DNA from: an uncultured Bacteroidia bacterium
GTDB taxonomy: Bacteria; Bacteroidota; Bacteroidia; JAIBAJ01
Assembly (NCBI GenBank): GCA_965284645.1
Contig: OZ260106.1
Coordinates: 3,979,160 to 4,043,159, forward strand
DNA length: 64,000 nt
Direction of reading: 5' to 3'
The position numbers and the translations under genes were made by a program. The stretch's first letter is position 1, and every line of letters starts with the position of its first letter. The notes beneath the pieces are model-generated. The model ran no database searches, was not told the DNA's origin, and worked only from the letters and a program-made list of their open reading frames with translations. Shown here piece by piece: positions 2,350 to 64,000 of the stretch.

Positions 2350-3513
2350 ATGGTGATAGGGATAATCGGATCAGGAGCAATGGGCTCGGGAATTGCACAA
2401 GTTGCGGCACAGAACGGTTGCCGCACCTTAGTGTACGACACAGAAAAAGTACAATTGGAAAAAGCCAAAAAACAAATCGCATCCGGACTTGCCAAATTGG
2501 TTGAAAAAGGAAAAATTAGTTCTGATTCCTTACATTCTACCCTATCCAATTTGGAATTCGTAGATGAATTAAATGGACTTTCAAGCTGTGATTTAATTAT
2601 TGAAGCCATCGTAGAAATAAAGGAGATAAAGAAAAAAGTGTTTGCCCAATTGGAAAGCTTGGTAAAACCGGGCTGCATCTTGGCCAGCAATACTTCTAGT
2701 CTGTCTATTGCCTCTTTGGCCGCCTCTATAAAAAGCCCCGAACGATTTATTGGCATTCACTTTTTCAATCCGGCTCCTTTAATGCCCTTGGTTGAAATAA
2801 TTCCTGGCCTTGCAACCGATGCCAACATTATAAAAACATGCCAAACCCTAATTTCATCGTGGGGGAAAAATGTGGTACTTACTAAAGATACGCCCGGTTT
2901 TATTGTTAATCGGGTGGCACGGAGCTATTACAGCGAATCGATTCGAATTGCCGAAGAACAAATAGCCGATTTTGCTACTATCGATTGGGCTATGAAAACC
3001 TTTGGAGGCTTTAAAATGGGGCCTTTCGAACTGATGGATTTTATTGGAAATGATGTGAACTTCAGGGTTACCGAAAGTGTGTGGACTCAGTTTTTCTTTG
3101 AACCTCGTTTCAAACCTTCCATTACCCAACAACGCTTGTTTGAATCAGGTTTCTTTGGTGTGAAATCAGGAAGAGGATACTACAGCTACAGCGAAGGAAT
3201 ATCTAAGCCTGCACCTACAACGGATCAAGCCTTGGGGAACTTAATTTTTAACCGGGTTGTGGCTATGCTGATAAATGAGGCTGTAGACTCATACTACTTT
3301 GGAATAGCTTCTGCAAAAGATTTGGATCTTGCCATGCAAAAGGGCGTAAATTACCCTAAAGGCTTACTTCAATGGGGAGAGGAATTAGGATGGGAAAAAG
3401 TGCTTGACATTCTTCAGGATTTATTCCATACCTATGGAGAAGACCGATATAGACCCTGCATTTTGTTAAAAATGCTGGCGAAAGGAAACAAAAAGATCGA
3501 TTGGAGTATATAA
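2350..3513 (+). CDS. paaH: 3-hydroxyacyl-CoA dehydrogenase (PaaH-like)
   Basis: N-terminal Rossmann motif IGIIGSGAMGSGIAQ. The 3HCDH N- and C-domains are present, with an extra C-terminal dimerisation repeat. Confidence 0.8.
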   Translation: MVIGIIGSGAMGSGIAQVAAQNGCRTLVYDTEKVQLEKAKKQIASGLAKLVEKGKISSDSLHSTLSNLEFVDELNGLSSCDLIIEAIVEIKEIKKKVFAQLESLVKPGCILASNTSSLSIASLAASIKSPERFIGIHFFNPAPLMPLVEIIPGLATDANIIKTCQTLISSWGKNVVLTKDTPGFIVNRVARSYYSESIRIAEEQIADFATIDWAMKTFGGFKMGPFELMDFIGNDVNFRVTESVWTQFFFEPRFKPSITQQRLFESGFFGVKSGRGYYSYSEGISKPAPTTDQALGNLIFNRVVAMLINEAVDSYYFGIASAKDLDLAMQKGVNYPKGLLQWGEELGWEKVLDILQDLFHTYGEDRYRPCILLKMLAKGNKKIDWSI

Positions 3514-6527: not shown

Positions 6528-6679
6528 GGCGTGCCCCCTCCGCCCAAAACCGCTTTAACCGAAAAAAAACAGTGTACAAGGGGCGTTCGGGTCAGGCTAT
6601 TCACTGCAAGTCCTCGCGACCTTCCGCTAAAGCTCCGGTCCGCTGTGGGCTTTCCGTTCCTATCCTTGCCCGAGATACC
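6528..6679 (-). repeat. Family-1 GC-rich intergenic repeat, copy A (reverse orientation)
   Basis: Shares conserved blocks with copies B-F: GGCGnGCCCC...GTCCTCGCG...CTGTGGGCTTTCC...TATCCTTGCCCGAG. Confidence 0.65.
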
Positions 6680-16348: not shown

Positions 16349-16453
16349 GGGACAAAGGTAGGGGTTTGGTGGAAAAGTTGAAAAAATTAGGAAGTTTAAT
16401 TTAACCATTTCTACCAAAAAAACAGGACCAATTAAAATTATTATTTCCTTTAA

Positions 16454-16614
16454 CCCAGATTACGCATTAGAAATGCATAAACGATTAACCAGTTGTAAAT
16501 CAATTTGTATAGCCAAATTGATAACAACTGCTATCCCGAAATTTCTTCGGGAGGGGTAACCCCAACTAAATCAAGTAGTTCGGATTAATAAATCCTCCTA
16601 TTGATTAATTTGGG
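16454..16614 (+). mobile_element. 161-bp MITE-like element, copy 1 (TIR CCCAGATT/AATTTGGG, TSD TTTAA)
   Basis: About 96% identical to copy 2 at 21150-21310. It is flanked by the direct repeat TTTAA (16449-16453 and 16615-16619). Confidence 0.75.
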
Positions 16615-16646
16615 TTTAATTACCTATTTTTGGCCTATGCTTAAAA

Positions 16647-16840
16647 TGGATAAAACAATTTATTCGAAAAAAACATTTGATGAAGCTGATGTTGGACGTT
16701 CCTATTGGATAAATTTTTCGTTAGAAGAACGTTTATCTGCAGCTACAAAATTAATCATGAACGTTTGGGGATTTACTGAAGATAACCTTACCAGAATGGA
16801 TAAAACCTATTTTGTAAAAAGAAGCCATTCTAAGGATTAA
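16647..16840 (+). CDS. Small hypothetical protein (about 64 aa); doubtful
   Basis: ORF 16601-16840 begins inside the MITE, so the alternative start MDKTIY is used here. No recognisable domain. Confidence 0.2.
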
Positions 16841-16861
16841 GCTTATTTTATTTTTCAAAGT

Positions 16862-17827
16862 CTATTTCCTATCCTTCTCCTCTGCTTTCCCTTCATCATA
16901 GGCATTTAATATCCTACTCACCAATGGATTTCTTACAATATCCTTACCTGTTAAATTAACAATAGCTACACCTTCTGTCTTCTTTAATAAACTCACCGCT
17001 TCAATTAATCCTGAAGGTTGATTTCTTGGCAAATCAATTTGAGTCATATCACCGGTAATAACAAACTTGGTCGACATCCCCATCCGGGTTAGAAACATTT
17101 TCATTTGGTTACGGGTGGAATTTTGGGCTTCATCCAAAATCACAAAAGCATTTTCCAAAGTACGGCCCCGCATAAAAGCCAAAGGTGCAATTTGGATGGT
17201 ACCGGTTTCTAGGTAGTTCCTCAACTTTTCAGGGGGGATCATATCGCGCAAGGCATCATACAAAGGTTGTAAGTATGGATCCAGCTTATCTTTCATGTCG
17301 CCAGGTAAAAAGCCGAGATTCTCCCCTGCTTCCACTGCCGGACGGGTTAAAATTATCCTCTTCACTTCCCTGCTTTTCAATGCTTTTACGGCTAAGGCAA
17401 CTGCCGTATACGTTTTACCGCTTCCAGCCGGACCTACCGCAAACAACATATCATGACTACGTATCTTTTCGCACATTACCCGTTGGTTGGGTGTACGTGC
17501 CTTTATTACCAAACCGTTTTGTCCATGCAGGATAATTTCATCCGAAAAATCTGCATTTGGGTTAACAACCAAACCATTATCTTCCAGAAAATACGCTAAA
17601 TCATTCTCAGAAATCCGTTTAAACTTGTCGATATGTTCGAGTATATCGTAGAACTTTTCTTCAAATATTTCAATTATTTGCGGATCTCCCAAAACCTTAA
17701 CCTGATTGCCTCGAGCTGTAATTTTTAGTTTTGGAAAGGCCTTCGAAATTAAATTTAAGTACGAATCGTTTGGGCCAAAAACATCCATCGGACGTATGCC
17801 TTCAATAAAAATGGTCTTCTCTGTCAA
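16862..17827 (-). CDS. phoH: PhoH-family ATPase
   Basis: Walker A motif GPAGSGKT and Walker B motif ILDEAQN; typical PhoH length and layout. Confidence 0.9.
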   Translation of the reverse strand: MTEKTIFIEGIRPMDVFGPNDSYLNLISKAFPKLKITARGNQVKVLGDPQIIEIFEEKFYDILEHIDKFKRISENDLAYFLEDNGLVVNPNADFSDEIILHGQNGLVIKARTPNQRVMCEKIRSHDMLFAVGPAGSGKTYTAVALAVKALKSREVKRIILTRPAVEAGENLGFLPGDMKDKLDPYLQPLYDALRDMIPPEKLRNYLETGTIQIAPLAFMRGRTLENAFVILDEAQNSTRNQMKMFLTRMGMSTKFVITGDMTQIDLPRNQPSGLIEAVSLLKKTEGVAIVNLTGKDIVRNPLVSRILNAYDEGKAEEKDRK

Positions 17828-17912
17828 ATGCTGCTTAATTTTGGGGGTGAAAATAAGGCATTGCCTTAGATAAATTTGAACAAACTTCTAAACCACTCAT
17901 TTTTTATTCTGT

Positions 17913-18590
17913 ATGAACATCACTTATTACGGACATTCCTGCTTCGCTGCCGAAATCAATGGTAAACACTTACTTTTTGATCCTTTTATTTCCCCTAATC
18001 CATTGGCCTCCCACATCAAGGTAGAGGAAGTTAAAGCCGACTATATTTTTATCAGTCACGGACATGAAGATCATATAGCGGACTTGGTTTCCATTGCTAA
18101 GCGCACTGGAGCAATCTGTGTTTGTGCTTACGAGATTTATGTTTGGTTGAACAAACAAGGTGTTACCAATGCCCATCCGATGAACACCGGAGGCCGAAAA
18201 GATTTTGGTGATTTTGCAGTAAAATGTACCGTTGCACATCATAGCAGTAGTTTCCCCGATGGAAGTTATGCCGGAAATCCAATGGGCTTTGTTATTACTT
18301 CAGATGAGGGCAATTTTTACTACTCCGGAGATACAGCCCTTACCCTTGATATGCAATTGCTTTCGGGTTACGACCTCGATGTTTGCCTTCTTCCAATAGG
18401 CGACAATTTTACCATGAGTGCAGACGAAGCCGCTATGGCAGCCGAATTTGTACATTGCAACAAAGTTATTGCCTTACATTACGATACCTTCGGATTTATC
18501 AAAGTAGATCATAAATCAGCCAAAGAATCGTTTGAAGAGTTGAACAAAGAACTCATTTTTGTCCAAATCGGTGATACGATTTCAATCTAA
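17913..18590 (+). CDS. Metallo-beta-lactamase-fold metal-dependent hydrolase (UPF0173-like)
   Basis: Metallo-beta-lactamase-fold metal-binding motif HGHEDH. Confidence 0.8.
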   Translation: MNITYYGHSCFAAEINGKHLLFDPFISPNPLASHIKVEEVKADYIFISHGHEDHIADLVSIAKRTGAICVCAYEIYVWLNKQGVTNAHPMNTGGRKDFGDFAVKCTVAHHSSSFPDGSYAGNPMGFVITSDEGNFYYSGDTALTLDMQLLSGYDLDVCLLPIGDNFTMSADEAAMAAEFVHCNKVIALHYDTFGFIKVDHKSAKESFEELNKELIFVQIGDTISI

Positions 18591-18629
18591 TTTGGGCAAG
18601 GTTCTTGTTTACATCCTAAAAAACTACCA

Positions 18630-20540
18630 TTGAAAAAGTTAATTCTATTCCTGCTAATCTTGCTTTCTACCTACAATTCTTGGGCACAGAAAGACAAGCT
18701 ACATTCCAAAAACAAAAAAGCTTTAGCCTTCTTCGAAGATGCACTCGTAGCCTATAACCGCCGTTTAGATGCGGATGCTTGTGAGCTATTCAAAAAAGCT
18801 TTGGTAGAGGATGATAAATTTTTGGAAGCCCGGGTTACCTTGGCCGATATACTAACCGACCTAGGTCGATTCGAAGAAGCTGAAGCAAATTGGGAAAAAC
18901 TGCTGCTACAAGACAAAGACTTCTTTCCAAGAGCCTACCTCAGACTTAGCATTGCTCAAATGGGATCAGCAAAATTCGATAAAGCTATTCCCAATTTGGA
19001 AACCTTCCTAAAGCAATCCAAACTACTGCCCGATATTCGAATCAAAGCCGAACGAATGCTTGAATCGGCCAAATTTGGAGCTGAGGCCGTAAAGCATCCG
19101 GTGCCTTATAACCCTATCAACTTAGGAGCCAATGTCAATACCGCTGATTTCGAATATTTTCCAAGTTTGACCACCGATGGCAAAACCCTCATCTTTACCC
19201 GAAACAGACGGGATGAAAGAGGTCATCACCAGGAGGATTTTTATGTGAGTAACCGCAGCGCCGATGGTTGGAGTACTGCCCTAAATTTAGGACCTCCTAT
19301 TAATACCGATGGAAATGAAGGCGCCCAATGCATATCGCCCGATGGACAGTGGATATTTATGACAGCCTGTAATCGCAAGGATGGAGAAGGTAGTTGTGAC
19401 ATTTATATTTCCCGCAAAACAGCCAATGGATGGAGCGAACCAAGAAACCCTAAATCACCCTTAAACTCCGATAAATGGGAAAGTCAACCAGGCTTTTCAG
19501 TTGATGGAAAAACACTATATTTCTCGAGCAACCGCCCCGGTGGCAAAGGAGGAATGGATATTTGGTATAGCACATTTATAACCGGAAAAGGTTGGGGAGA
19601 ACCCAAAAACTTGGTCATAATTAATACCCCTGGCAATGAACAAAGCCCCTTTATCCATCCCGATGACCAAACCTTGTACTTTTCTTCGGATGGACTACCC
19701 GGATTGGGGAAACAAGACCTTTTTTATTGCCGCAGACAACCCGACGGTTATTGGGGTGTGCCCCAAAACATGGGCTATCCAATCAATACACCAGGCGACG
19801 AACAAGGCTTAATGGTTAGCGCACAGGGCGATACTGCCTTTATTTCAACCGACAAAAAAGGAGGATTTGGAGAACTGGATCTTTATTCTTTCGCCCTTTA
19901 CCCTGAAGCTAGACCACAAACCGTAACCTATTTCAAAGGAAAGATTACAGACAAAGAAAACGGTTCACCTTTGGAAGCTAATTTTGAACTCATCGATTTA
20001 GCAACAGGCGAAGTGAAAGCCCGCTCAAATTCTACAGCCGGAACAGGAGAATTTTTGGTGAGTTTGCCCATGAACCGCAACTATGCCTTGAATGTTTCAA
20101 AAGATAAATACCTCTTCTATTCCGAATCGTTTGAATTAACTGGAAGCAATACTGCTGCAAAACCTGTATTTAAAAACGTACAAATGAGTCCGATAAGGGC
20201 AGGAGAAAAAATCGTTTTACGCAATATATTCTTTGATTCCAACAAATTTGACCTAAAACCTGAATCCAATTCCGAACTCGAAAAACTGGTCGAAATCTTG
20301 AGCAAAAACCCAACGATGAAAGTTGAAATTAGCGGACATACCGACAATGTGGGTAACAAAGCTGCCAATAAAACCTTAAGCGAAAACCGTTCGAAATCAG
20401 TGGTCGCATTCCTTATATCAAAAGGAATTTCATCCGACCGTTTAAGTTCCAAAGGCTATGGCGATGAAAAACCAATTGACACCAATGACACCGAACAAGG
20501 TAGGGCCAATAACCGAAGAACCGAAATGGTAATACTGTAA
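18630..20540 (+). CDS. OmpA-family outer-membrane protein with N-terminal TPR, central TolB-like beta-propeller repeats and a C-terminal OmpA domain
   Basis: Signal peptide (TTG start). Repeated DG..I(Y)F.S.R motifs match WD40-like TolB repeats. C-terminal NIFFDSNKFDL...GHTDNVG...NRRTE is an OmpA/MotB peptidoglycan-binding domain. Confidence 0.8.
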   Translation: MKKLILFLLILLSTYNSWAQKDKLHSKNKKALAFFEDALVAYNRRLDADACELFKKALVEDDKFLEARVTLADILTDLGRFEEAEANWEKLLLQDKDFFPRAYLRLSIAQMGSAKFDKAIPNLETFLKQSKLLPDIRIKAERMLESAKFGAEAVKHPVPYNPINLGANVNTADFEYFPSLTTDGKTLIFTRNRRDERGHHQEDFYVSNRSADGWSTALNLGPPINTDGNEGAQCISPDGQWIFMTACNRKDGEGSCDIYISRKTANGWSEPRNPKSPLNSDKWESQPGFSVDGKTLYFSSNRPGGKGGMDIWYSTFITGKGWGEPKNLVIINTPGNEQSPFIHPDDQTLYFSSDGLPGLGKQDLFYCRRQPDGYWGVPQNMGYPINTPGDEQGLMVSAQGDTAFISTDKKGGFGELDLYSFALYPEARPQTVTYFKGKITDKENGSPLEANFELIDLATGEVKARSNSTAGTGEFLVSLPMNRNYALNVSKDKYLFYSESFELTGSNTAAKPVFKNVQMSPIRAGEKIVLRNIFFDSNKFDLKPESNSELEKLVEILSKNPTMKVEISGHTDNVGNKAANKTLSENRSKSVVAFLISKGISSDRLSSKGYGDEKPIDTNDTEQGRANNRRTEMVIL

Positions 20541-20562
20541 ATAAAAAAAATAAAATTGATGT

Positions 20563-20784
20563 GGCGGGCCCCTTTTCGCCTAAACCATTTTCAGAAAAAT
20601 TATACTTATCCCAAGGCGAAAAGGTCACGCTTTCGGCGGTAGTCCTCGGTATGCGAAGGGCTAGGCCGATAGTGCTCGATTTAATTTTTTACGAAGATCT
20701 AGCTTTTTACATCTAATTTCATTTTGCAAACGGCCTAACCCTTCACATCCCTGTGGGCTACACTGCCTCTATCGTTGCCCGAGG
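20563..20784 (-). repeat. Family-1 GC-rich repeat, copy C (reverse, with an internal insertion of about 70 bp)
   Basis: GGCGGGCCCC...GTCCTCGG...CTGTGGGCTAC...CTATCGTTGCCCGAGG. Confidence 0.6.
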
Positions 20785-20967
20785 CCGTTGTTCCAAAATC
20801 GAAGATGGAATTAAACCCAAATTCAGCATTAGAAATCTATTACAGCTTCCAACTGCTTCAAATACATGGATTTCAGAACAATTTTTGACTTCAAAATAGT
20901 TTACTATTCCTTCACCCAAAAATTAACCTGAAACCCTCGTCTTTATTGCATTTGAAAGCTTCATTAC

Positions 20968-20992
20968 GATTTCTAATGCGTAATTTGGGTTA
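20968..20992 (-). mobile_element. Solo terminal fragment of the 161-bp MITE (25 bp of the TIR end)
   Basis: Reverse complement is ttaacccaaattacgcattagaaatc, which matches the MITE left end ttaacccagattacgcattagaaat. Confidence 0.5.
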
Positions 20993-21149
20993 AAATTTGG
21001 CTCTCCGTTTTCAATTCTATAAAAATGGAAACGCATAGCGATACTAAAATCCGAATGGCAATTTTACTGAAGGTGGCTATTATTTTGGTAAGTCTCAGAC
21101 TTACTTTTCCCAAATCCAAGTTGAAAACTTGGATTTCCTCCCCCTTAAT

Positions 21150-21310
21150 CCCAGATTACGCATTAGAAATGCATAAACGATTAACCAGTTGTAAATCAAT
21201 TTGTTTGTCCAAATTGATAAAAACTGCTATCCCGAAATTTCTTCGGGAGGGGTAAACCCAACTAAATCAAGTAGTTCGGATTAATAAATCCTCCTATTGA
21301 TTAATTTGGG
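21150..21310 (+). mobile_element. 161-bp MITE-like element, copy 2 (TSD TTAAT)
   Basis: Flanked by TTAAT at 21145-21149 and 21311-21315. The distal TSD copy contains the tonB stop codon. Confidence 0.75.
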
Positions 21311-22150
21311 TTAATCCAGCACAAATACAAAGGTCATCGATCCCCGCTGTTCTTTGGTTCCGTCAAAACTAGGATTAAACTTCGTTGCAAAAGCCGCCTG
21401 ACGAGCCTTGGCATATAAAATCGGACTAGCCGTTGTACTTCCCCTCGCACCAGGTTCTGCCCTTACAACATCCCCAAACTCATTCACCACGATATCAACA
21501 ACCACTTTTCCTTGGTCTTGTGAATCATCAAAAACGGTTGGTTTCTTTACCAGCGACCGCCCCTTTAAGTTGTAACGAATACCATTGCCTACCCCTACTC
21601 CCGGACCACCTCCACTCCCTCCGTTTCCATCTGTTAATGGGTTACCATCTGGACTCCCTTCGTTGCCGGCCTGTCCGCTATTGCCATCACCCCCACCTGA
21701 ATTTTTAGAACGGGTGCGGAACTTATTCAATGCGTTCATCAATTCATTGCTTGGCTGTGGATTTGGCTTTACCACCTCAACCGGAACGTCAGGTTTCTTA
21801 ACTGTTTCCTTAGCGTCAGGTTTTGAATTGATAGCCACAGATTCTTCTGCCTCTGAAGTCAAAACATTCTCGGCTTTGCTTGGCGTTGATTCTGTATTTG
21901 GTGTAGGATTCTGAGGAACAGGCGATGGATCTGAAATATCGCCCATTTGATCGTTCTCTACATTGCCCGTACCTTCGATGAAATTTCCAAAATTCACTTC
22001 TATTCCGGGGGCTGGGCCTTCCGGATAAGGCGGAATAGGGGTTTTAAAAACCATCAAAATAAAAAACAGAAACAACAAACCATGCACCGCCAAGGTGGCA
22101 AGTATGGCCCAAACCCTCGAATTGTTGTCTTGTTCAGCAGCGCTCGTCAT
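21311..22150 (-). CDS. tonB: Energy transducer TonB
   Basis: N-terminal TM anchor, Pro-rich spacer (PIPPYPEGPAPG...PSPVPQNPTPN), and a C-terminal TonB domain. Confidence 0.8.
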   Translation of the reverse strand: MTSAAEQDNNSRVWAILATLAVHGLLFLFFILMVFKTPIPPYPEGPAPGIEVNFGNFIEGTGNVENDQMGDISDPSPVPQNPTPNTESTPSKAENVLTSEAEESVAINSKPDAKETVKKPDVPVEVVKPNPQPSNELMNALNKFRTRSKNSGGGDGNSGQAGNEGSPDGNPLTDGNGGSGGGPGVGVGNGIRYNLKGRSLVKKPTVFDDSQDQGKVVVDIVVNEFGDVVRAEPGARGSTTASPILYAKARQAAFATKFNPSFDGTKEQRGSMTFVFVLD

Positions 22151-23499: not shown

Positions 23500-23638
23500 C
23501 CGGGAAGGGATAGCAGTGGAAAGCCCACAGCGGCCTGAGCGTAAGCGAAAGGCGCGAGGACTTGCAACGAATAGCCCGACCATGAGCCCAGTAAAATGCC
23601 TAATCAGGGTAGAATGGTTGAGGCGAATGGGACCCGCC
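23500..23638 (+). repeat. Family-1 GC-rich repeat, copy D (forward)
   Basis: CGGGAAGGGATAGCAGTGGAAAGCCCACAGCGG...CGAGGACTTGCAACGAATAGCCCGACC...GGGACCCGCC. Confidence 0.65.
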
Positions 23639-39806: not shown

Positions 39807-39955
39807 GGCGGGCCCCCTTCCGCCAAAACCGGCTTTACCCAGGAATTGACCTTGGTGCAAGGGCGGTCGGGTCACGCTTTCCGCAGTAGTCCTCGGTTTG
39901 CTCCGTTAGCACTGCGCAAACCTGTGGGCTACTTGCTGCAATCGTTGCCCGGAAG
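39807..39955 (-). repeat. Family-1 GC-rich repeat, copy E (reverse)
   Basis: GGCGGGCCCCCTTCCGCCAAAACCGGCTTTACCC...GTCCTCGG...CTGTGGGCTAC...ATCGTTGCCCGGAAG. Confidence 0.65.
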
Positions 39956-40611: not shown

Positions 40612-40883
40612 AACTTATTTGAAGTGAATAAATTTAAGGAATGAGGAAAACGAATGAAACTTTTAGCATTCAAATCATAGGATTAGAACAATAGGAATTT
40701 AGGTTATTGGCACCAAAGAAAGCCTTAATTTCAATAGAAACTACTTTTCTTGAGTATTCATCTAATTTATTACCTCTTTATTTCAAAGGTAAAATGGTAG
40801 TCTATATACCAGAACCTCCCTTTACCAAAAGGAAATGGGAAGCAAACTATAAAGGCCACCGCAAAAAGTGGTTTGGGGATGTC

Positions 40884-41027
40884 TCGGGCAGGGATAGAAA
40901 CGGAAAGCCCACAACGGCCCGAGCGAATGCGACAGGCGTGAGGACTTGCAGTGAATAGCCCGACCATGAGCCCTTGCACTACAGGTTAATCGGAGGAGGA
41001 ATGGGTATTGGGGCGAATGGGGCACGC
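40884..41027 (+). repeat. Family-1 GC-rich repeat, copy F (forward)
   Basis: TCGGGCAGGGATAGAAACGGAAAGCCCACAACGG...TGAGGACTTGCAGTGAATAGCCCGACCATGAGCCC...GGGGCACGC. Confidence 0.65.
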
Positions 41028-55847: not shown

Positions 55848-57227
55848 TTATTTTACAGATGCTTCTGATTTTGCATTTTTAAGAATTTCAACTTCTGCCT
55901 TCAAATCTTTAAGCATTTTACTCAAGTCATCTTGTGCAACAATTTTAGACTGTAAAGATTCAATTTGTTTTTGTTGTTCTTTTACTGCATTAACTAAGAT
56001 ATAAACCAAGGCTGAACTATCATACATCAGCAAATCCTCGGCTTTGGCATCAGTTTCTTTAAGTTTTTTGGTCACAGTTTCAACCATATAAGGAGCTACT
56101 GGTTTTACTTCTTGGGCAATAACCCCGATATAATCCTTTCCATTAGCCTGATATCCACCAAGTCCGTTGTATTTAAAACTTACTGGATTAATTTGCAGCA
56201 GAGTGGCCAATCCATCATTAAATGGTTTAATATCCTTTTTAAGACGACGGTCAGAAAATGTTTGCCAGCTGCCACCTCCTAATTTGGAAGCATCCCCATT
56301 TACAGAAAATAATTGGTCTGGAGAAAGGGTACCGATACCCACACGGGCATCAGAATTTATAGCCATAATTGGTTGAAAACCTCCATTTCCAACATCAGTT
56401 GCTCCGAAAATCACACGATCTCCTGTTCCATTAGGAGAAACACCATAGTTGTCTCCAAAATTTATGCGTAATTCGCTTTTGTCATCGCCTGCATTGTAAC
56501 GAGCAATCCACATATCATCTGAATTATTGCTACCAAAAGTTGGACCAGTTCCTCCGCCATCAAAGCGCAAAGCCCTTCCCAATTGAGGAAAAGTTGCTGG
56601 GGCAGGAGCTATGGTTTCTCCAATTATTAAATCACCAAAAGCAACTTGCAATTTAGCGCCTGGGGTAGTTGTAGAGATACCAACATTGGTGCCATCATCG
56701 GAGATAATGGAATTACACATATCGGTTGGAGAGGTAAATTTTGTTACAAAATTGGTGGTAGCTGTTTGACAAATAGTTCCGGGACCAGTAGCTCCTGTAG
56801 CACCTGTAGCACCTACAGCACCGGCAGGGCCTTGTGCACCAGCGGGGCCTTGCGCACCAGCAGCACCGGCAACACCGGCAGGACCTTGTGCACCAGCAGC
56901 ACCTGTTGGACCAGTTGGACCAGTTGAACCGACAGCACCTGAAATATCTCCGCAAATACTTACCCAAACTGGAGCCGTAGTTGTACCTCTATTGTAAAAG
57001 AAGCAACTTGAATCAGTGTCAAAAACTAATAAACTATGGTATGGGTTGTTAAGCCCCAATCTTTGAAGTGCATTAAGTCTTGGGACAAGCATGCCCTTAG
57101 TTGAAGAGGAAACATCCAAAACAGCAGAAGGATCAGGCGTAGTTGTTCCAATACCAACATTATTCTGGGCTAGAACACTTAAGGAAAGGAGCAAAAAGGA
57201 AAAAATGGATAGACCTAATTTTCTCAT
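55848..57227 (-). CDS. Secreted collagen-like (Gly-X-Y) repeat protein with a C-terminal peptidase-S74 intramolecular-chaperone (tail-fibre) domain
   Basis: About 26 consecutive GXY triplets (GPTGPTGAAGAQGPAG...). The C-terminal SDRRLKKDIKPF...LLQINPVSFKYNG matches the start of the endosialidase chaperone / S74 autoprocessing domain. Confidence 0.75.
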   Translation of the reverse strand: MRKLGLSIFSFLLLSLSVLAQNNVGIGTTTPDPSAVLDVSSSTKGMLVPRLNALQRLGLNNPYHSLLVFDTDSSCFFYNRGTTTAPVWVSICGDISGAVGSTGPTGPTGAAGAQGPAGVAGAAGAQGPAGAQGPAGAVGATGATGATGPGTICQTATTNFVTKFTSPTDMCNSIISDDGTNVGISTTTPGAKLQVAFGDLIIGETIAPAPATFPQLGRALRFDGGGTGPTFGSNNSDDMWIARYNAGDDKSELRINFGDNYGVSPNGTGDRVIFGATDVGNGGFQPIMAINSDARVGIGTLSPDQLFSVNGDASKLGGGSWQTFSDRRLKKDIKPFNDGLATLLQINPVSFKYNGLGGYQANGKDYIGVIAQEVKPVAPYMVETVTKKLKETDAKAEDLLMYDSSALVYILVNAVKEQQKQIESLQSKIVAQDDLSKMLKDLKAEVEILKNAKSEASVK

Positions 57228-57457: not shown

Positions 57458-57471
57458 CAGTCCAAATTATT

Positions 57472-57545
<74 letters not shown>

Positions 57546-59409: not shown

Positions 59410-62400
59410 ATGTTAAAAAACTCTTTATTTTCACCCCCAAATCCAAAGCTAATCGCCTTGAAAAAAGTTTTACAACTATCGATTTTTCTACTTTCTATCC
59501 TATTTAGTAGTAATATTTTAGCCTCCCACATTGTTGGAGGGGAAATAAACTACACCTACCTTGGAGGAAATCAATATCAGATTGCTATTACCCTCTATAG
59601 AGATTGCAATAGCACCACTGATTTTGATGACCCAGCCGCTGTTGGAATTTTTGATGGAAATGGAAATTTGGTACAAACCATTGATATTAATCTTGGTGCT
59701 GTTAACCAGATTAATGCTTCGATTAATAATCCTTGTATTACTCCACCTTCTAGTGTTTGTACTGAGGTAACTACCTACACTACAACAGTAACCCTTCCGC
59801 CAAACGGAAATGGATATCAAATCGTTTATCAAAGGTGTTGTAGAAATGCTGTAATAGATAACATCCAAGATCCGAGCAATACTGGGGCTACCTATGTTGC
59901 TGTAATTCCTGGAGTTGCTCCTCTAAATAATAATAGCAACCCTACCTTTAACAACCTTCCTCCCTTGTTTATTTGTGCTGGAACACCATTTACCTTTAAC
60001 CATGCAGCTACCGATTCAGATGGAGATTCTTTAGTTTATTCTTTAACCACCCCATTTGAAGGTGCCGATGCAGTTAATCCTCAGCCCAACACACCTTCAA
60101 CACCTCCTTATACAAATATTACTTGGCAAGCGCCTTATTCCCAAAACAATATGTTTGGGGGCGTACCATTAACCATTGATGCCCAAACAGGCGTTATTAC
60201 CTGTACTCCAAATACCCAAGGAACCTTTGTTTATGCCGTTCAGGTTGCTGAATACCGTAATGGTGTCCTTATTGGATTTACAAAAAGGGAATACCAATTA
60301 ACTGTGACCAATTGTAATAATCCTACTGTAGCTGGATTTGGTTTAACAAATGCTTCTGGTGGAGTTGGCTATTCAACCTGTTCCTCTAATGTTGTTTTTA
60401 ACAATACTAGCTCAAATGCAACATCCTATTCTTGGGACTTTGGAGATCCTACAACCACATCAGATGTTTCAACCAGCCAAAATCCAACCTATACCTATCC
60501 GGCTCAAGGAACCTACAATGTAACACTTATTGCTATTTCTTCCAATTGTAGCGATACTATTAACATACCTGTAACCATCACTGGAAATATTTCAGTTTCA
60601 GCCGGTGCAGATTTAACGGCTTGTCCAGGAAATTCAGTGCAATTAAATGCAACTGGCGCTACAACCTATTCTTGGTCACCAACTACAGGTATATCGAATC
60701 CAAATATTGCTAACCCTACTGCTTCTCCTGCAACAACAACTTCCTATGTTGTTACAGGAACTGATGCTAGTGGATGTACTGGCACCGACACCGTTGTGGT
60801 TACCATAGGAACCATAAATGTATCTGGAGGTTCGGACCAAACCGTTTGTAATGGCAGCTGTGTTCAACTTACAGGGTCAGGCGCTACAACTTATGCTTGG
60901 AGTCCAAGTTCTGGTTTAACTGGAGCCAATACAGCCACTCCCACTGCTTGTCCGACGGTTACCACCACTTATGTTGTTACCGGAACAAGCAATGGTTGCA
61001 CTGGAACCGACACGGTAACTGTTTTTGTAACTACACCACCCAATATTAATGCAGGAAACGATACAACGATTTGCCCGGGTGGAACTGCCCAACTCTTTGC
61101 AAACGGTGGGCTTTCCTACAATTGGAGTCCTTCCACAGGGCTGTCGAACCCCAACATCGCTAACCCAACGGCTTCACCAACTACCACAACAACCTATACT
61201 GTAACGGTTACAGCTCCATCGGGAAACGTTGTTGTAAACGGAGATTTTTCTAGTGGAAATACGGGCTTTTCAAGTGGCTATGTTAATAATAGTAACCTTC
61301 AACCAGAAGGAAGATACTTTATTACCAACGATGCATCTAACAATCATCCTAATTTCGTAGGGGTAGACCATACAACAGGCTCAGGCAACTTTATGGCCGT
61401 AAATGGTTCAGGAACTCCCAATAACGATGTTTGGTGCCAAACTGTAAATGTTACTCCTAATACTGTTTATGCCTTCAGCACTTGGGTTAGTACACTTGCT
61501 CCTGGAAATACTGCAGCTTTGCAATTTAGTATTAATGGTGTTCAGTTGGGTAATATTTTTAATGCTCCCTCTTCCTTAAACACTTGGAACCAATTCTTCC
61601 AAACCTGGAATTCGGGCACGAATACAACAGCTACCATTTGTATCGTAAACCAAAATACAAGCTTAGGTGGAAATGATTTTGGATTAGATGATATTACCTT
61701 CTCACCAACTTGTACGGCTACGGCCCAAGTTACCGTAACAGTTGGATCTGTTGGAGCAATCAACGCAGGTCCAGACCAACAAGTTTGTGCTGGAGCCAGT
61801 GTGCAGCTGAATGCTACCGGCGGACAGAACTATAGCTGGAGCCCTGCTACCGATCTTTCGTCTACCACGATTGCCAACCCCATTTCTACACCGGCCAATA
61901 CCATTACCTATGTGGTTAGCGGAACCGACACCTTGGGTTGTTCGGCCTCCGATACGGTTCAGGTTACAGTAAATCCCCTGCCTACGGTTTCTGCCGGTCA
62001 GGACCAAAATATTTGCCTTGGGGATTCAGCCCAGCTTGTTGCTGCAGGCGCTGCAACCTATGTTTGGACACCTGCTACCGGATTATCGTCTGCTACCATA
62101 GCCAATCCTGTGTTTACACCAAGCGCAGCCGGTTCGGTGGTGTTCACCGTTACTGGAACAGACCAAAACGGTTGTACCGATAGCGACAACATCACGGTTT
62201 TAGTTGGTACTCCTCCTACGGCCGTTGTTTCTGGGCCTGTAAGTATCTGTCCGGGCGGTTCTACCCAACTGCTTGCCTCGGGCGGTGTTGGTTACCAATG
62301 GAGCCCAACTACCGGACTTAATGTTCCAAACATTCCAAATCCACTTGCTTCACCTAGCCAAACAACGACGTATACCGTAACCGTTTCTGATATCGCAGGC

Positions 62401-64000
62401 TGTACCGATTCGGCTAGTGTGGTTGTAACAGTGCTTGTTGCTCCTACAGTTAGTGCGGGTCCCGACACAGGTTTCTGTACCGGTGGTTCGCTTCAGCTCG
62501 TTGCAACCGGAGCTAGCAGCTATGCTTGGAGCCCTGCCAACGGACTTTCCAACCCGGCCATTGCCAATCCTGTCGCTTCACCGAACGTTTCAACGGTTTA
62601 TGTGGTAACCGGTACCGCTCCGAACGGTTGTACCGACAGCGATACCATCAGCGTGGACGTTTGGCCAAACCCGAATGCCGATGCCGGTCCTGATCAAACT
62701 GTTTGTATCGGCTCGTTCGTGCAGTTACAGGGCAGCGGAGGACAGACCTATCAATGGAGCCCTGCTGCACCGCTCAACAACGATACCATTTACAACCCTG
62801 TTGGCGTTCTTACTAGTACAACCACCTTTACCCTTATCGTTGGCAACCAATACGGATGTACCGACCAAGACCAGGTAACCATTACCATGCTTCCTGCTCC
62901 GGCCTACAGTGTGGGAACCGATACCTTGATTTGTCCGGGTGGTACCGCCCAACTTTTTGCTACTGCCGTTGGTGCTATTTCCTATGTTTGGAACCCCATC
63001 ACCGGGCTTTCGAACCCTTTCATCGCCAACCCTACCGCCACTCCGCCTTTTACTCAGTTCTATACCGTTAGCATCACCACCTCAACCTGTACTATCAACG
63101 ACAGCGTGACCGTGGTGGTTGACCAGCCCGACTTTGCCAATGCCGGAAGCGATACAGCCTATTGCTTCGGACAGTCGGTACAGCTCGGTGCTACCGGTGG
63201 TGTTTCCTATGAATGGTTCCCTGCCACCGGACTGAACAACCCCAATATCCAGAACCCGATTACCAGTATCGACACCTCCATCGTGTACGGGGTAATCACC
63301 ACAACGGCCATTGGTTGTAATGACACCGACTTTGTCAACATCGTGGTGAATCCCTTGCCAAATGTGGACGCAGGACCCGTTTCCAGTCCAATTTGTGCTG
63401 GAGCTACCGTACTGTTGACCGCCACGGGTGCCAATACCTATCTCTGGAGTCCGGCCGCAGGGTTGTCCAATCCAACTTCCGATATCACGACAGCCGGGCC
63501 TTTGAATGCAAGCCAAACCTTTACCGTAACAGGTACCGACACCTTGGGATGCAGCAACACCGATACCATACAGCTTAACCTGGTACCGAACCCCACAGCC
63601 GATGCCGGTCCCGACACCACCATCTGTTCAGGAGCCAGTGTGCAGCTTAATGCCTCTGGTGGAACCTCCTATGTATGGAACCCAGCCGGTGGACTTTCAT
63701 CGCCCTTTGTGTCCAATCCGATGGCATTCCCCGTAACCTCCACCGAATATTCAGTTACGGTAACCGACAACAACGGATGTTCCGATACCGATACTATTGA
63801 AGTAAACGTGTTCAGTCTGCAAATTGAAGGGGATACCACCATCTGCCAAGGCGATACCGTGGAATTTGTTTTGCCACAGGGAACAAGCTTCGTTTGGGAT
63901 CCAACCATTGGTGTGGGAGGCACCTCAACCGTGGCTCTGCTTTATCCCAATACTTCTACAACCTATACGGTAACCGCTACCAATACCTTGGCCGGTTGTA
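59410..64000 (+). CDS. Giant secreted adhesin, partial (>1530 aa, runs off the window end). It has an N-terminal module shared with the 10222 protein, followed by tandem Ig-like repeats of about 80 aa.
   Basis: Hand-traced frame from the ATG at 59410 (MLKNSLF... signal). The frame was checked at 10 points to 64000 with no shift. At least 19 repeats of the form C.GG...L.A.GA..Y.WSP..GLSNP.IANP.ASP..TTTY.VT.TD..GC.D.D...V. Confidence 0.85.
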   Translation, partial: MLKNSLFSPPNPKLIALKKVLQLSIFLLSILFSSNILASHIVGGEINYTYLGGNQYQIAITLYRDCNSTTDFDDPAAVGIFDGNGNLVQTIDINLGAVNQINASINNPCITPPSSVCTEVTTYTTTVTLPPNGNGYQIVYQRCCRNAVIDNIQDPSNTGATYVAVIPGVAPLNNNSNPTFNNLPPLFICAGTPFTFNHAATDSDGDSLVYSLTTPFEGADAVNPQPNTPSTPPYTNITWQAPYSQNNMFGGVPLTIDAQTGVITCTPNTQGTFVYAVQVAEYRNGVLIGFTKREYQLTVTNCNNPTVAGFGLTNASGGVGYSTCSSNVVFNNTSSNATSYSWDFGDPTTTSDVSTSQNPTYTYPAQGTYNVTLIAISSNCSDTINIPVTITGNISVSAGADLTACPGNSVQLNATGATTYSWSPTTGISNPNIANPTASPATTTSYVVTGTDASGCTGTDTVVVTIGTINVSGGSDQTVCNGSCVQLTGSGATTYAWSPSSGLTGANTATPTACPTVTTTYVVTGTSNGCTGTDTVTVFVTTPPNINAGNDTTICPGGTAQLFANGGLSYNWSPSTGLSNPNIANPTASPTTTTTYTVTVTAPSGNVVVNGDFSSGNTGFSSGYVNNSNLQPEGRYFITNDASNNHPNFVGVDHTTGSGNFMAVNGSGTPNNDVWCQTVNVTPNTVYAFSTWVSTLAPGNTAALQFSINGVQLGNIFNAPSSLNTWNQFFQTWNSGTNTTATICIVNQNTSLGGNDFGLDDITFSPTCTATAQVTVTVGSVGAINAGPDQQVCAGASVQLNATGGQNYSWSPATDLSSTTIANPISTPANTITYVVSGTDTLGCSASDTVQVTVNPLPTVSAGQDQNICLGDSAQLVAAGAATYVWTPATGLSSATIANPVFTPSAAGSVVFTVTGTDQNGCTDSDNITVLVGTPPTAVVSGPVSICPGGSTQLLASGGVGYQWSPTTGLNVPNIPNPLASPSQTTTYTVTVSDIAGCTDSASVVVTVLVAPTVSAGPDTGFCTGGSLQLVATGASSYAWSPANGLSNPAIANPVASPNVSTVYVVTGTAPNGCTDSDTISVDVWPNPNADAGPDQTVCIGSFVQLQGSGGQTYQWSPAAPLNNDTIYNPVGVLTSTTTFTLIVGNQYGCTDQDQVTITMLPAPAYSVGTDTLICPGGTAQLFATAVGAISYVWNPITGLSNPFIANPTATPPFTQFYTVSITTSTCTINDSVTVVVDQPDFANAGSDTAYCFGQSVQLGATGGVSYEWFPATGLNNPNIQNPITSIDTSIVYGVITTTAIGCNDTDFVNIVVNPLPNVDAGPVSSPICAGATVLLTATGANTYLWSPAAGLSNPTSDITTAGPLNASQTFTVTGTDTLGCSNTDTIQLNLVPNPTADAGPDTTICSGASVQLNASGGTSYVWNPAGGLSSPFVSNPMAFPVTSTEYSVTVTDNNGCSDTDTIEVNVFSLQIEGDTTICQGDTVEFVLPQGTSFVWDPTIGVGGTSTVALLYPNTSTTYTVTATNTLAGC

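Follow-up and report, generated by a model that had tools for sequence, protein, structure and literature searches.

In a 64-kb stretch of DNA from an uncultured Bacteroidia bacterium (contig OZ260106.1, positions 3,979,160 to 4,043,159; hereafter called the window), we found three MITEs (miniature inverted-repeat transposable elements), of which two belong to a 161-bp type and the third to a 174-bp type. They very probably represent three independent insertions of elements which go back to a subgroup of IS1380-family insertion sequences (IS) that extends across the Bacteroidota, and which this subgroup mobilises in trans. A preliminary description of the window had proposed that the 161-bp unit is a non-autonomous MITE. 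Every testable part of that reading held, and its mistakes concerned only detail, namely the length of the terminal inverted repeats (TIRs), an end thought to be solitary and the number of copies. Judged by every sequence criterion testable here, the elements are MITEs and their partner is a member of the IS1380 family.

The two 161-bp copies show 5 mismatches in 161 positions (96.9% identity, where about 96% had been reported), and both the coordinates and the flanking pentamers given for them earlier were exact. Both copies start with CCCAGATT, finish with AATTTGGG and contain the GC hairpin CCCGAAATTTCTTCGGG that had already been noticed. Their ends are those of the preliminary description, but the inverted repeat is longer than the imperfect 8 bp assigned to it, the two ends agreeing at 14 of 21 positions. 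A 21-nt terminus motif, CCCARATTNNGCATTAGAAAT, is present at four sites in the window versus 0.16 expected, a number reached in none of 100 shuffles. Two of these sites face each other and bound the 174-bp element, whose 22-nt TIRs (CCCAAATTCAGCATTAGAAATC / GATTTCTAATGCGTAATTTGGG) match at 20 of 22 positions. What had been taken for a solo 25-bp TIR end at 20968-20992 is really the right end of this element, and the window thus holds three complete elements, not two. As shown in Table 1, each of them is flanked by its own matching pentamer (TTTAA, TTAAA and TTAAT). The MITE ends start with CCCARATT on both sides, in the form CCCARATT..GCATTAGAAAT, and the elements have no capacity to encode a transposase. 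Copy 1 is flanked by divergent genes, and convergent genes flank copy 2. The TAA stop codon of the TonB-like gene on the minus strand (21311-22150) is formed by positions 21311-21313, within the right duplication of copy 2, so that the TonB-like protein is unaltered by the insertion.

Table 1. Coordinates of the three MITEs, their target duplications and the hairpins of copy 1 in the window
Feature	Position	Strand	Remarks
MITE copy 1, 161-bp type	16454-16614	+	repeat family D2
Left duplication of copy 1, TTTAA	16449-16453		read directly; identical to 16615-16619
Right duplication of copy 1, TTTAA	16615-16619		
Local hairpins of copy 1	16464-16476, 16490-16530, 16534-16552, 16561-16614		
Third MITE, 174-bp type	20816-20989	+	inverted repeat I8; terminus motif at 20816 (+) and 20989 (-)
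Left duplication of 174-bp element, TTAAA	20811-20815		
Right duplication of 174-bp element, TTAAA	20990-20994		
MITE copy 2, 161-bp type	21150-21310	+	orientation same as copy 1
Left duplication of copy 2, TTAAT	21145-21149		
Right duplication of copy 2, TTAAT	21311-21315		

Empty sites were found in related contigs, which were obtained by looking up the ExbD protein of the window and carry an identical ExbD. In these contigs the genes for MotA/ExbB, ExbD, the TonB-like protein, OmpA, the MBL hydrolase and PhoH follow each other in the same order as in the window, while the TonB-like/OmpA intergenic region measures 426 nt versus 770 nt in the window. Copy 2 is missing from four contigs (L120, L121, L122 and L125), the alignment showing a clean gap, and at the same gene end a single TTAAT is left in L125 and a CTAAT in the other three. 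The 174-bp element is missing, again with a clean gap, from L120 and L121, in which the site reads GATGGA-TTCAA-ATTTGGCTC (GATGGA-TTCAA-ATTTGG), versus GATGGAA-TTAAA-element-TTAAA-ATTTGG in the window. Empty sites that keep one copy of the pentamer exclude a segmental duplication and, together with the copy-specific pentamers, bear out the earlier claim of independent insertions. Copy 2 is present in L118 and L124, which are contigs of another sample. L118 diverges from the window midway through this copy, which we read as an assembly break at the repeat and not as a variant element.

In a scan of a collection of species-representative genomes, the 21-nt terminus was present in at least 103 loci and, among the matches listed, its carriers are nearly all Bacteroidota (Flavobacterium, Chitinophagaceae, Saprospiraceae, Bacteroidales and Sediminibacterium); the few matches outside this phylum fall in coding sequence and look like chance pattern matches. 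In a metagenome-assembled genome of Sediminibacterium (L019), a 161-bp element about 98% identical to those of the window lies at a different site, flanked by TTAAA, from which it seems that the DNA of the window belongs to a relative of Sediminibacterium. When each terminus among the matches listed was paired with an inverted partner, 64 short elements of 109-620 bp were obtained. Their flanking pentamers match exactly in 46 of 64 cases and with at most one mismatch in 59, whereas a control in which the partner flanks were swapped between elements gave a mean of 12.2 exact matches and a maximum of 20. Thus, the duplications recur when the flanks of related elements are tabulated, as the preliminary description had suggested doing. 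The only repeat length that gives flank matches among these 64 elements is 5 bp, and the consensus of the target is T-T-W-A-A. Paired structures of 427-1080 bp were considered as IS remnants and rejected, being nested or adjacent MITEs, or two MITEs around a host gene. No full-length IS was present among the listed matches from the 103 genome loci, the loci with an unpaired terminus among them contained ordinary genes and no transposase, and a blastn search of a plasmid collection with the 174-bp element returned only chance matches of 20-30 nt.

The autonomous partner had been predicted to share the termini of the MITEs and their 5-bp duplication, and such elements do exist outside the window. 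The lead was provided by ISEcp1, whose transposase and both ends were taken from plasmid pC15-1a; the ends read from it are CCTAGATT... and CCTAAATT..., and also CCTAGATTCTACGT... and, reverse-complemented, CCTAAATTCCACGT.... In a tblastn search of the fetched loci, the ISEcp1 protein matched L034 with 26% identity (E = 7e-13). In this contig and in its longer twin L106 the terminus is the 3' end of the transposase gene, TTTGTAATTTCTAATGCGTAATCTGGG encoding ...FPFVISNA and the stop, after which the flank begins. The L034 contig, which was also retrieved as L105 and is extended by 66 bases in L106, stops within the intact IS; in its positions 1-930 this IS adjoins a truncated and more divergent IS1380-like copy (open reading frame (ORF) at 280-891) with an end of its own, ...CTATTTGCGG|TTTAA.

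Contig look-ups yielded two complete elements. That in L116 is 1402 bp long and flanked by TTAAA/TTAAA; its right end agrees with the MITE terminus of the window at 20 of 21 positions, and its transposase copy carries one nonsense codon and a frameshift. The element in L108 measures 1381 bp, is flanked by TTTAA/TTTAA, and has perfect 18-nt TIRs and one in-frame stop. The conceptual proteins of L116 and L108 scored 247.1 and 232.1 bits against the NCBIfam model of the IS1380 family (NF033539, cutoff 180) and 163 and 149 bits against Pfam PF13701, while the partner transposases score far below the cutoffs of IS4, IS701 and IS1634. When metagenomes were scanned with a profile of these proteins, 461 of the first 600 candidate stretches proved to be relatives, and the best 80 were examined. 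Nearly all of these 80 cover the whole transposase, and an internal stop is absent from at least 75; the intact protein is 437-441 aa long (about 439 aa). Ends could be defined for 57 of the 80 which, with L116 and L108, makes 59 elements of 1377-1487 bp, mostly of about 1403 bp, with a single ORF and the consensus ends CCCAGATTaCGCAATAGaAA (left) and CCCAGATTACGCATTAGAaAATT (right). In L141, both TIRs are identical at 21 of 21 positions to the left end of the 161-bp MITE of the window, and an intact ORF of 439 aa ends in ..YPFEISNA. Duplications of 5 bp surround L116, L108 and another 18 of the full-length elements, and every end starts with CCC.

In the partner IS, the final four residues of the transposase and its stop are encoded within the right TIR (..SNA*, ATTTCTAATGCGTAATCTGGG; for instance, L116 3199-3222 and L141 1396-1419). 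The terminus is unusually conserved because it contains the C-terminus and stop of the protein, and for the same reason gene callers report many C-terminal fragments of 61-105 aa which end in SNA at contig ends. Accordingly, a protein search with the 60-aa C-terminal peptide found only fragments of this size from contig ends, and a search with the truncated copy of L034 found only fragments of 112-325 aa. Some of the SNA fragments are misnamed, for example as 'membrane protein YbhN'. Directly adjoining the IS1380-type element of L116, a 49-aa fragment with a match to the Pfam Y1 transposase (IS200-like) was observed at 3198-3347 on the minus strand, so that this site has gathered several mobile elements.

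ISEcp1 duplicates 5 bp of its target, and members of the IS1380 family are described in ISfinder as making 4-5-bp duplications and having ends that start with CC; they have a single ORF and a length of about 1.55-2.0 kb. The NCBIfam and Pfam models that recognise ISEcp1 also recognise the partner transposase, the ends of the partner IS start with CC and share the form CC(C/T)A(G/A)ATT with ISEcp1 (CCTAGATT / CCTAAATT), and an AT-rich 5-bp duplication is found around both the partner IS and the MITEs. However, the partner shares only about 26% identity with ISEcp1 along the aligned stretch, its 1377-1487 bp lie somewhat below the length known for the family, its stop codon is within the right TIR, and the window carries only non-coding derivatives. 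A further likeness is to piggyBac, which duplicates a 4-bp TTAA and encodes a DDD transposase of at least 500 aa. The CCC ends and the AT-rich palindromic target containing TTAA or TTWAA are shared with it, but the duplication is here strictly of 5 bp and the transposase is of IS1380 type, with about 439 aa; this is a resemblance and not a membership. IS1380 transposases have been placed as the prokaryotic outgroup to piggyBac (PMC10813416).

With known bacterial MITEs, such as MITEAba12 or those of P. gingivalis, the elements of the window have in common that they are short, non-coding and intergenic, have TIRs and duplications, share their termini with an IS, fold strongly and are polymorphic in presence and absence. 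The MITEs of P. gingivalis share their TIRs with ISPg elements of the IS5 family (PMC4596501), whereas the parent is here an IS1380 element, and the 161-bp type differs from other bacterial MITEs in folding into local hairpins and not into a foldback of the whole element. Automated surveys have listed thousands of MITEs in Bacteroidota without assigning their families (PMC11602168), and IS1380 is not mentioned in a 2024 review of prokaryotic MITEs. Judging by titles and abstracts, no description of IS1380-derived MITEs was found in the searchable literature.

The ends of the 161-bp type point to its derivation. The left end of copy 1, CCCAGATTACGCATTAGAAAT, resembles the right end of the IS, with profile scores of 32.4 for the right inverted repeat (IRR) and 28.1 for the left one (IRL), whereas the reverse-complemented right end, CCCAAATTAATCAATAGGAGG, resembles the left end of the IS (IRL 24.6, IRR 5.7); this type and the IS left end have CAATAGGA in common. 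This type is therefore a two-ended derivative, inverted on the plus strand with respect to its parent, and the mismatches of its TIRs result from the asymmetry between left and right ends of the parent IS. IS1380 members have been described as accepting imperfect right ends and as carrying outward promoters (PMC9330008), and the former property is in keeping with a 161-bp type whose TIRs are imperfect. In the mechanism that we propose, the IS1380-type transposase would recognise the termini of about 21 nt (CCCARATTNNGCA(T/A)TAGRAA) and cut the AT-rich TTWAA target with a stagger of 5 bp, and repair of the gaps would then leave the 5-bp duplication. On the account with the best support, the MITEs of the window would have been mobilised in trans in this way, perhaps by a working partner in this genome.

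Several observations weigh against this reading. First, an empty site was not obtained for copy 1, as L118 begins just within the repeat and L126 is too short. Second, the flanks of the full-length IS match exactly in only 20 of 59 elements and are one base off in 21 more. We suspect that this reflects chimeric assembly of a multi-copy repeat, since most of the contigs are assemblies of 1.5-4 kb of such a repeat. Third, the interior of the MITEs past about 20 nt has no similarity to the IS, so that their origin by a simple internal deletion is at most a conjecture. Finally, in line with what had been stated before, nothing related to the partner transposase was found in the 64 kb of the window (best tblastn E = 1.6, and 5.5 for ISEcp1), so that current mobility in this host is hypothetical.

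As a single strand, the 161-bp type has a computed fold of -31 kcal/mol (z = -6.0) with four local hairpins, while the 174-bp type forms a single long foldback of -29.3 kcal/mol (z = -6.9). On an alignment of fifteen copies of the 161-bp type from different genomes, a five-helix model pairs 88.4% of the cells versus 30-45% when the partner columns are slid, 13 pairs and 53 cells are changed on both sides, and the covariation score was reached by none of 500 shuffles. In two of these helices the TIR is paired with its internal inverted copy, and the left end of the IS likewise has a palindrome, CTAATGC-GTA-GCATTAG, about 50 nt within the end. Co-evolution of repeated transposase-binding sites, without any folding, could explain the covariation of these TIR helices; it gives no explanation for the central hairpin of 9+8 bp. 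The 161-bp type may be more than a stripped-down IS. Compensatory changes preserve its four local hairpins in genomes of Chitinophagaceae and Bacteroidales, and this would mean selection on the folded single strand, although we consider such a reading rather unlikely. If true, the folded strand could be an RNA made from the element, which would act either on transcripts nearby or on the transposase, or else a hairpinned DNA end needed by the IS1380-type transposase. The latter would offer a bacterial system in which to study the recognition of CCC ends and TTWAA by the closest prokaryotic relatives of piggyBac.

The same hairpins and covariation are what would be expected if the 161-bp unit were mainly a structured non-coding RNA or a regulatory hairpin cassette kept by the host, with inverted ends that are only incidental. 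We regard this explanation as very unlikely, because the duplications, the empty sites and the termini, which are the same as in an IS with a transposase, mark the unit as mobile DNA, and two of the covarying helices consist of the TIR and its internal inverted copy, which would co-vary too if they were simply transposase-binding sites. Moreover, the genomic context is not consistent between copies 1 and 2, and the elements have no Rfam match, either at E <= 1 or at gathering scores. A scan for sigma-70 promoters and intrinsic terminators, in which Bacteroidota promoter types were not modelled, found no promoter- or terminator-like consensus within them; a candidate Bacteroidota-type -7 box in the right terminus, TTAATTTG, was considered and dropped.

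Even less probable is a mobiliser from outside the IS1380 family, be it of Tn3 type, of IS5 or IS4 type, or a single-strand Y1 transposase acting on hairpins. The Tn3-derived inverted-repeat miniature elements (TIMEs) are non-autonomous and have 5-bp duplications, just as the elements described here, and hairpins lie near the ends of the 161-bp type. Nevertheless, TIMEs have Tn3-type ends of about 38 bp which start with GGGG, whereas the elements of the window start with CCCA, and the full-length elements with termini identical at 21 of 21 positions encode transposases of the IS1380 family. IS200/IS605-type palindrome-associated elements (PATEs) and REP elements, in turn, have hairpin ends and not TIRs, a Y1 transposase as partner and no target duplication, in contrast to the exact 5-bp duplications and the DDE partner found here. 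In the last alternative, the 161-bp copies would bound, as direct repeats, a mobile unit of 4.9 kb, duplicated or composite, with PhoH, the MBL hydrolase and OmpA. It has the direct orientation of the copies, 4696 bp apart around three genes, in its favour, but can be dismissed with near certainty since each copy has its own matched pentamer, with outer flanks (TTTAA versus TTAAT) unexpected for a composite transposon, both copy 2 and the 174-bp element are missing from related contigs in which the genes are ordered as in the window, and the same element occurs at unrelated sites in other genomes, each time with its own duplication.

MITEs are standard in bacterial genomes, and the insertion of IS1380-derived MITEs in the window alters no general picture. 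What it does is to tie a widespread repeat of the Bacteroidota, with at least 103 loci at the exact 21-nt terminus, to a largely intact subgroup of IS1380. This link explains many contig breaks in metagenome assemblies, as well as the 'hypothetical' ORF fragments of 60-100 aa that end in ..SNA. The TTWAA target with its 5-bp duplication is a clean rule for annotating such insertions, and the near invariance of the terminus across families and orders is simply accounted for by a TIR in which the transposase gene also ends.

Some minor features of the window and its relatives were also recorded. L118 belongs to a strain about 99% identical to the window, in which about 450 nt are extra (L118 183-634 versus window ~16853-16863); they contain a called gene of 148 aa, absent from the window, between a small ORF and the PhoH-like gene. 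Two short GC-rich segments (20623-20654 and 20736-20761) are shared with 39870-39901 and 39907-39932, with 91% and 77% identity, respectively, and the first site, which is in the OmpA/TonB-like intergenic region, is conserved in L120 and L121. A second repeat family, which is also GC-rich and of about 90-140 nt, is present at 6590-6675 (-), 23501-23589 (+) and 40883-40969 (+), as well as in L019 (6152-6296). A long hairpin is supported by all four of them, 8 of its pairs having changes on each side, and for the one at 40883-40969 the Rfam Flavo-1 RNA (RF01705) gives 36.6 bits (E = 1.8e-6), below the gathering score of 42. A 9-nt periodic repeat (family D1, 56775-56945), which on the minus strand is GGN CCN GNN-like, points to a coding region with a collagen-like Gly-X-Y tract, while four diverged copies of a 46-nt segment (families D3 and D8, 60751-63799), 0.5-1.4 kb apart, are probably repeated domains of a large surface protein. 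Throughout the window, the Rfam gathering score is reached only by a tRNA gene at 57471-57543 (+).

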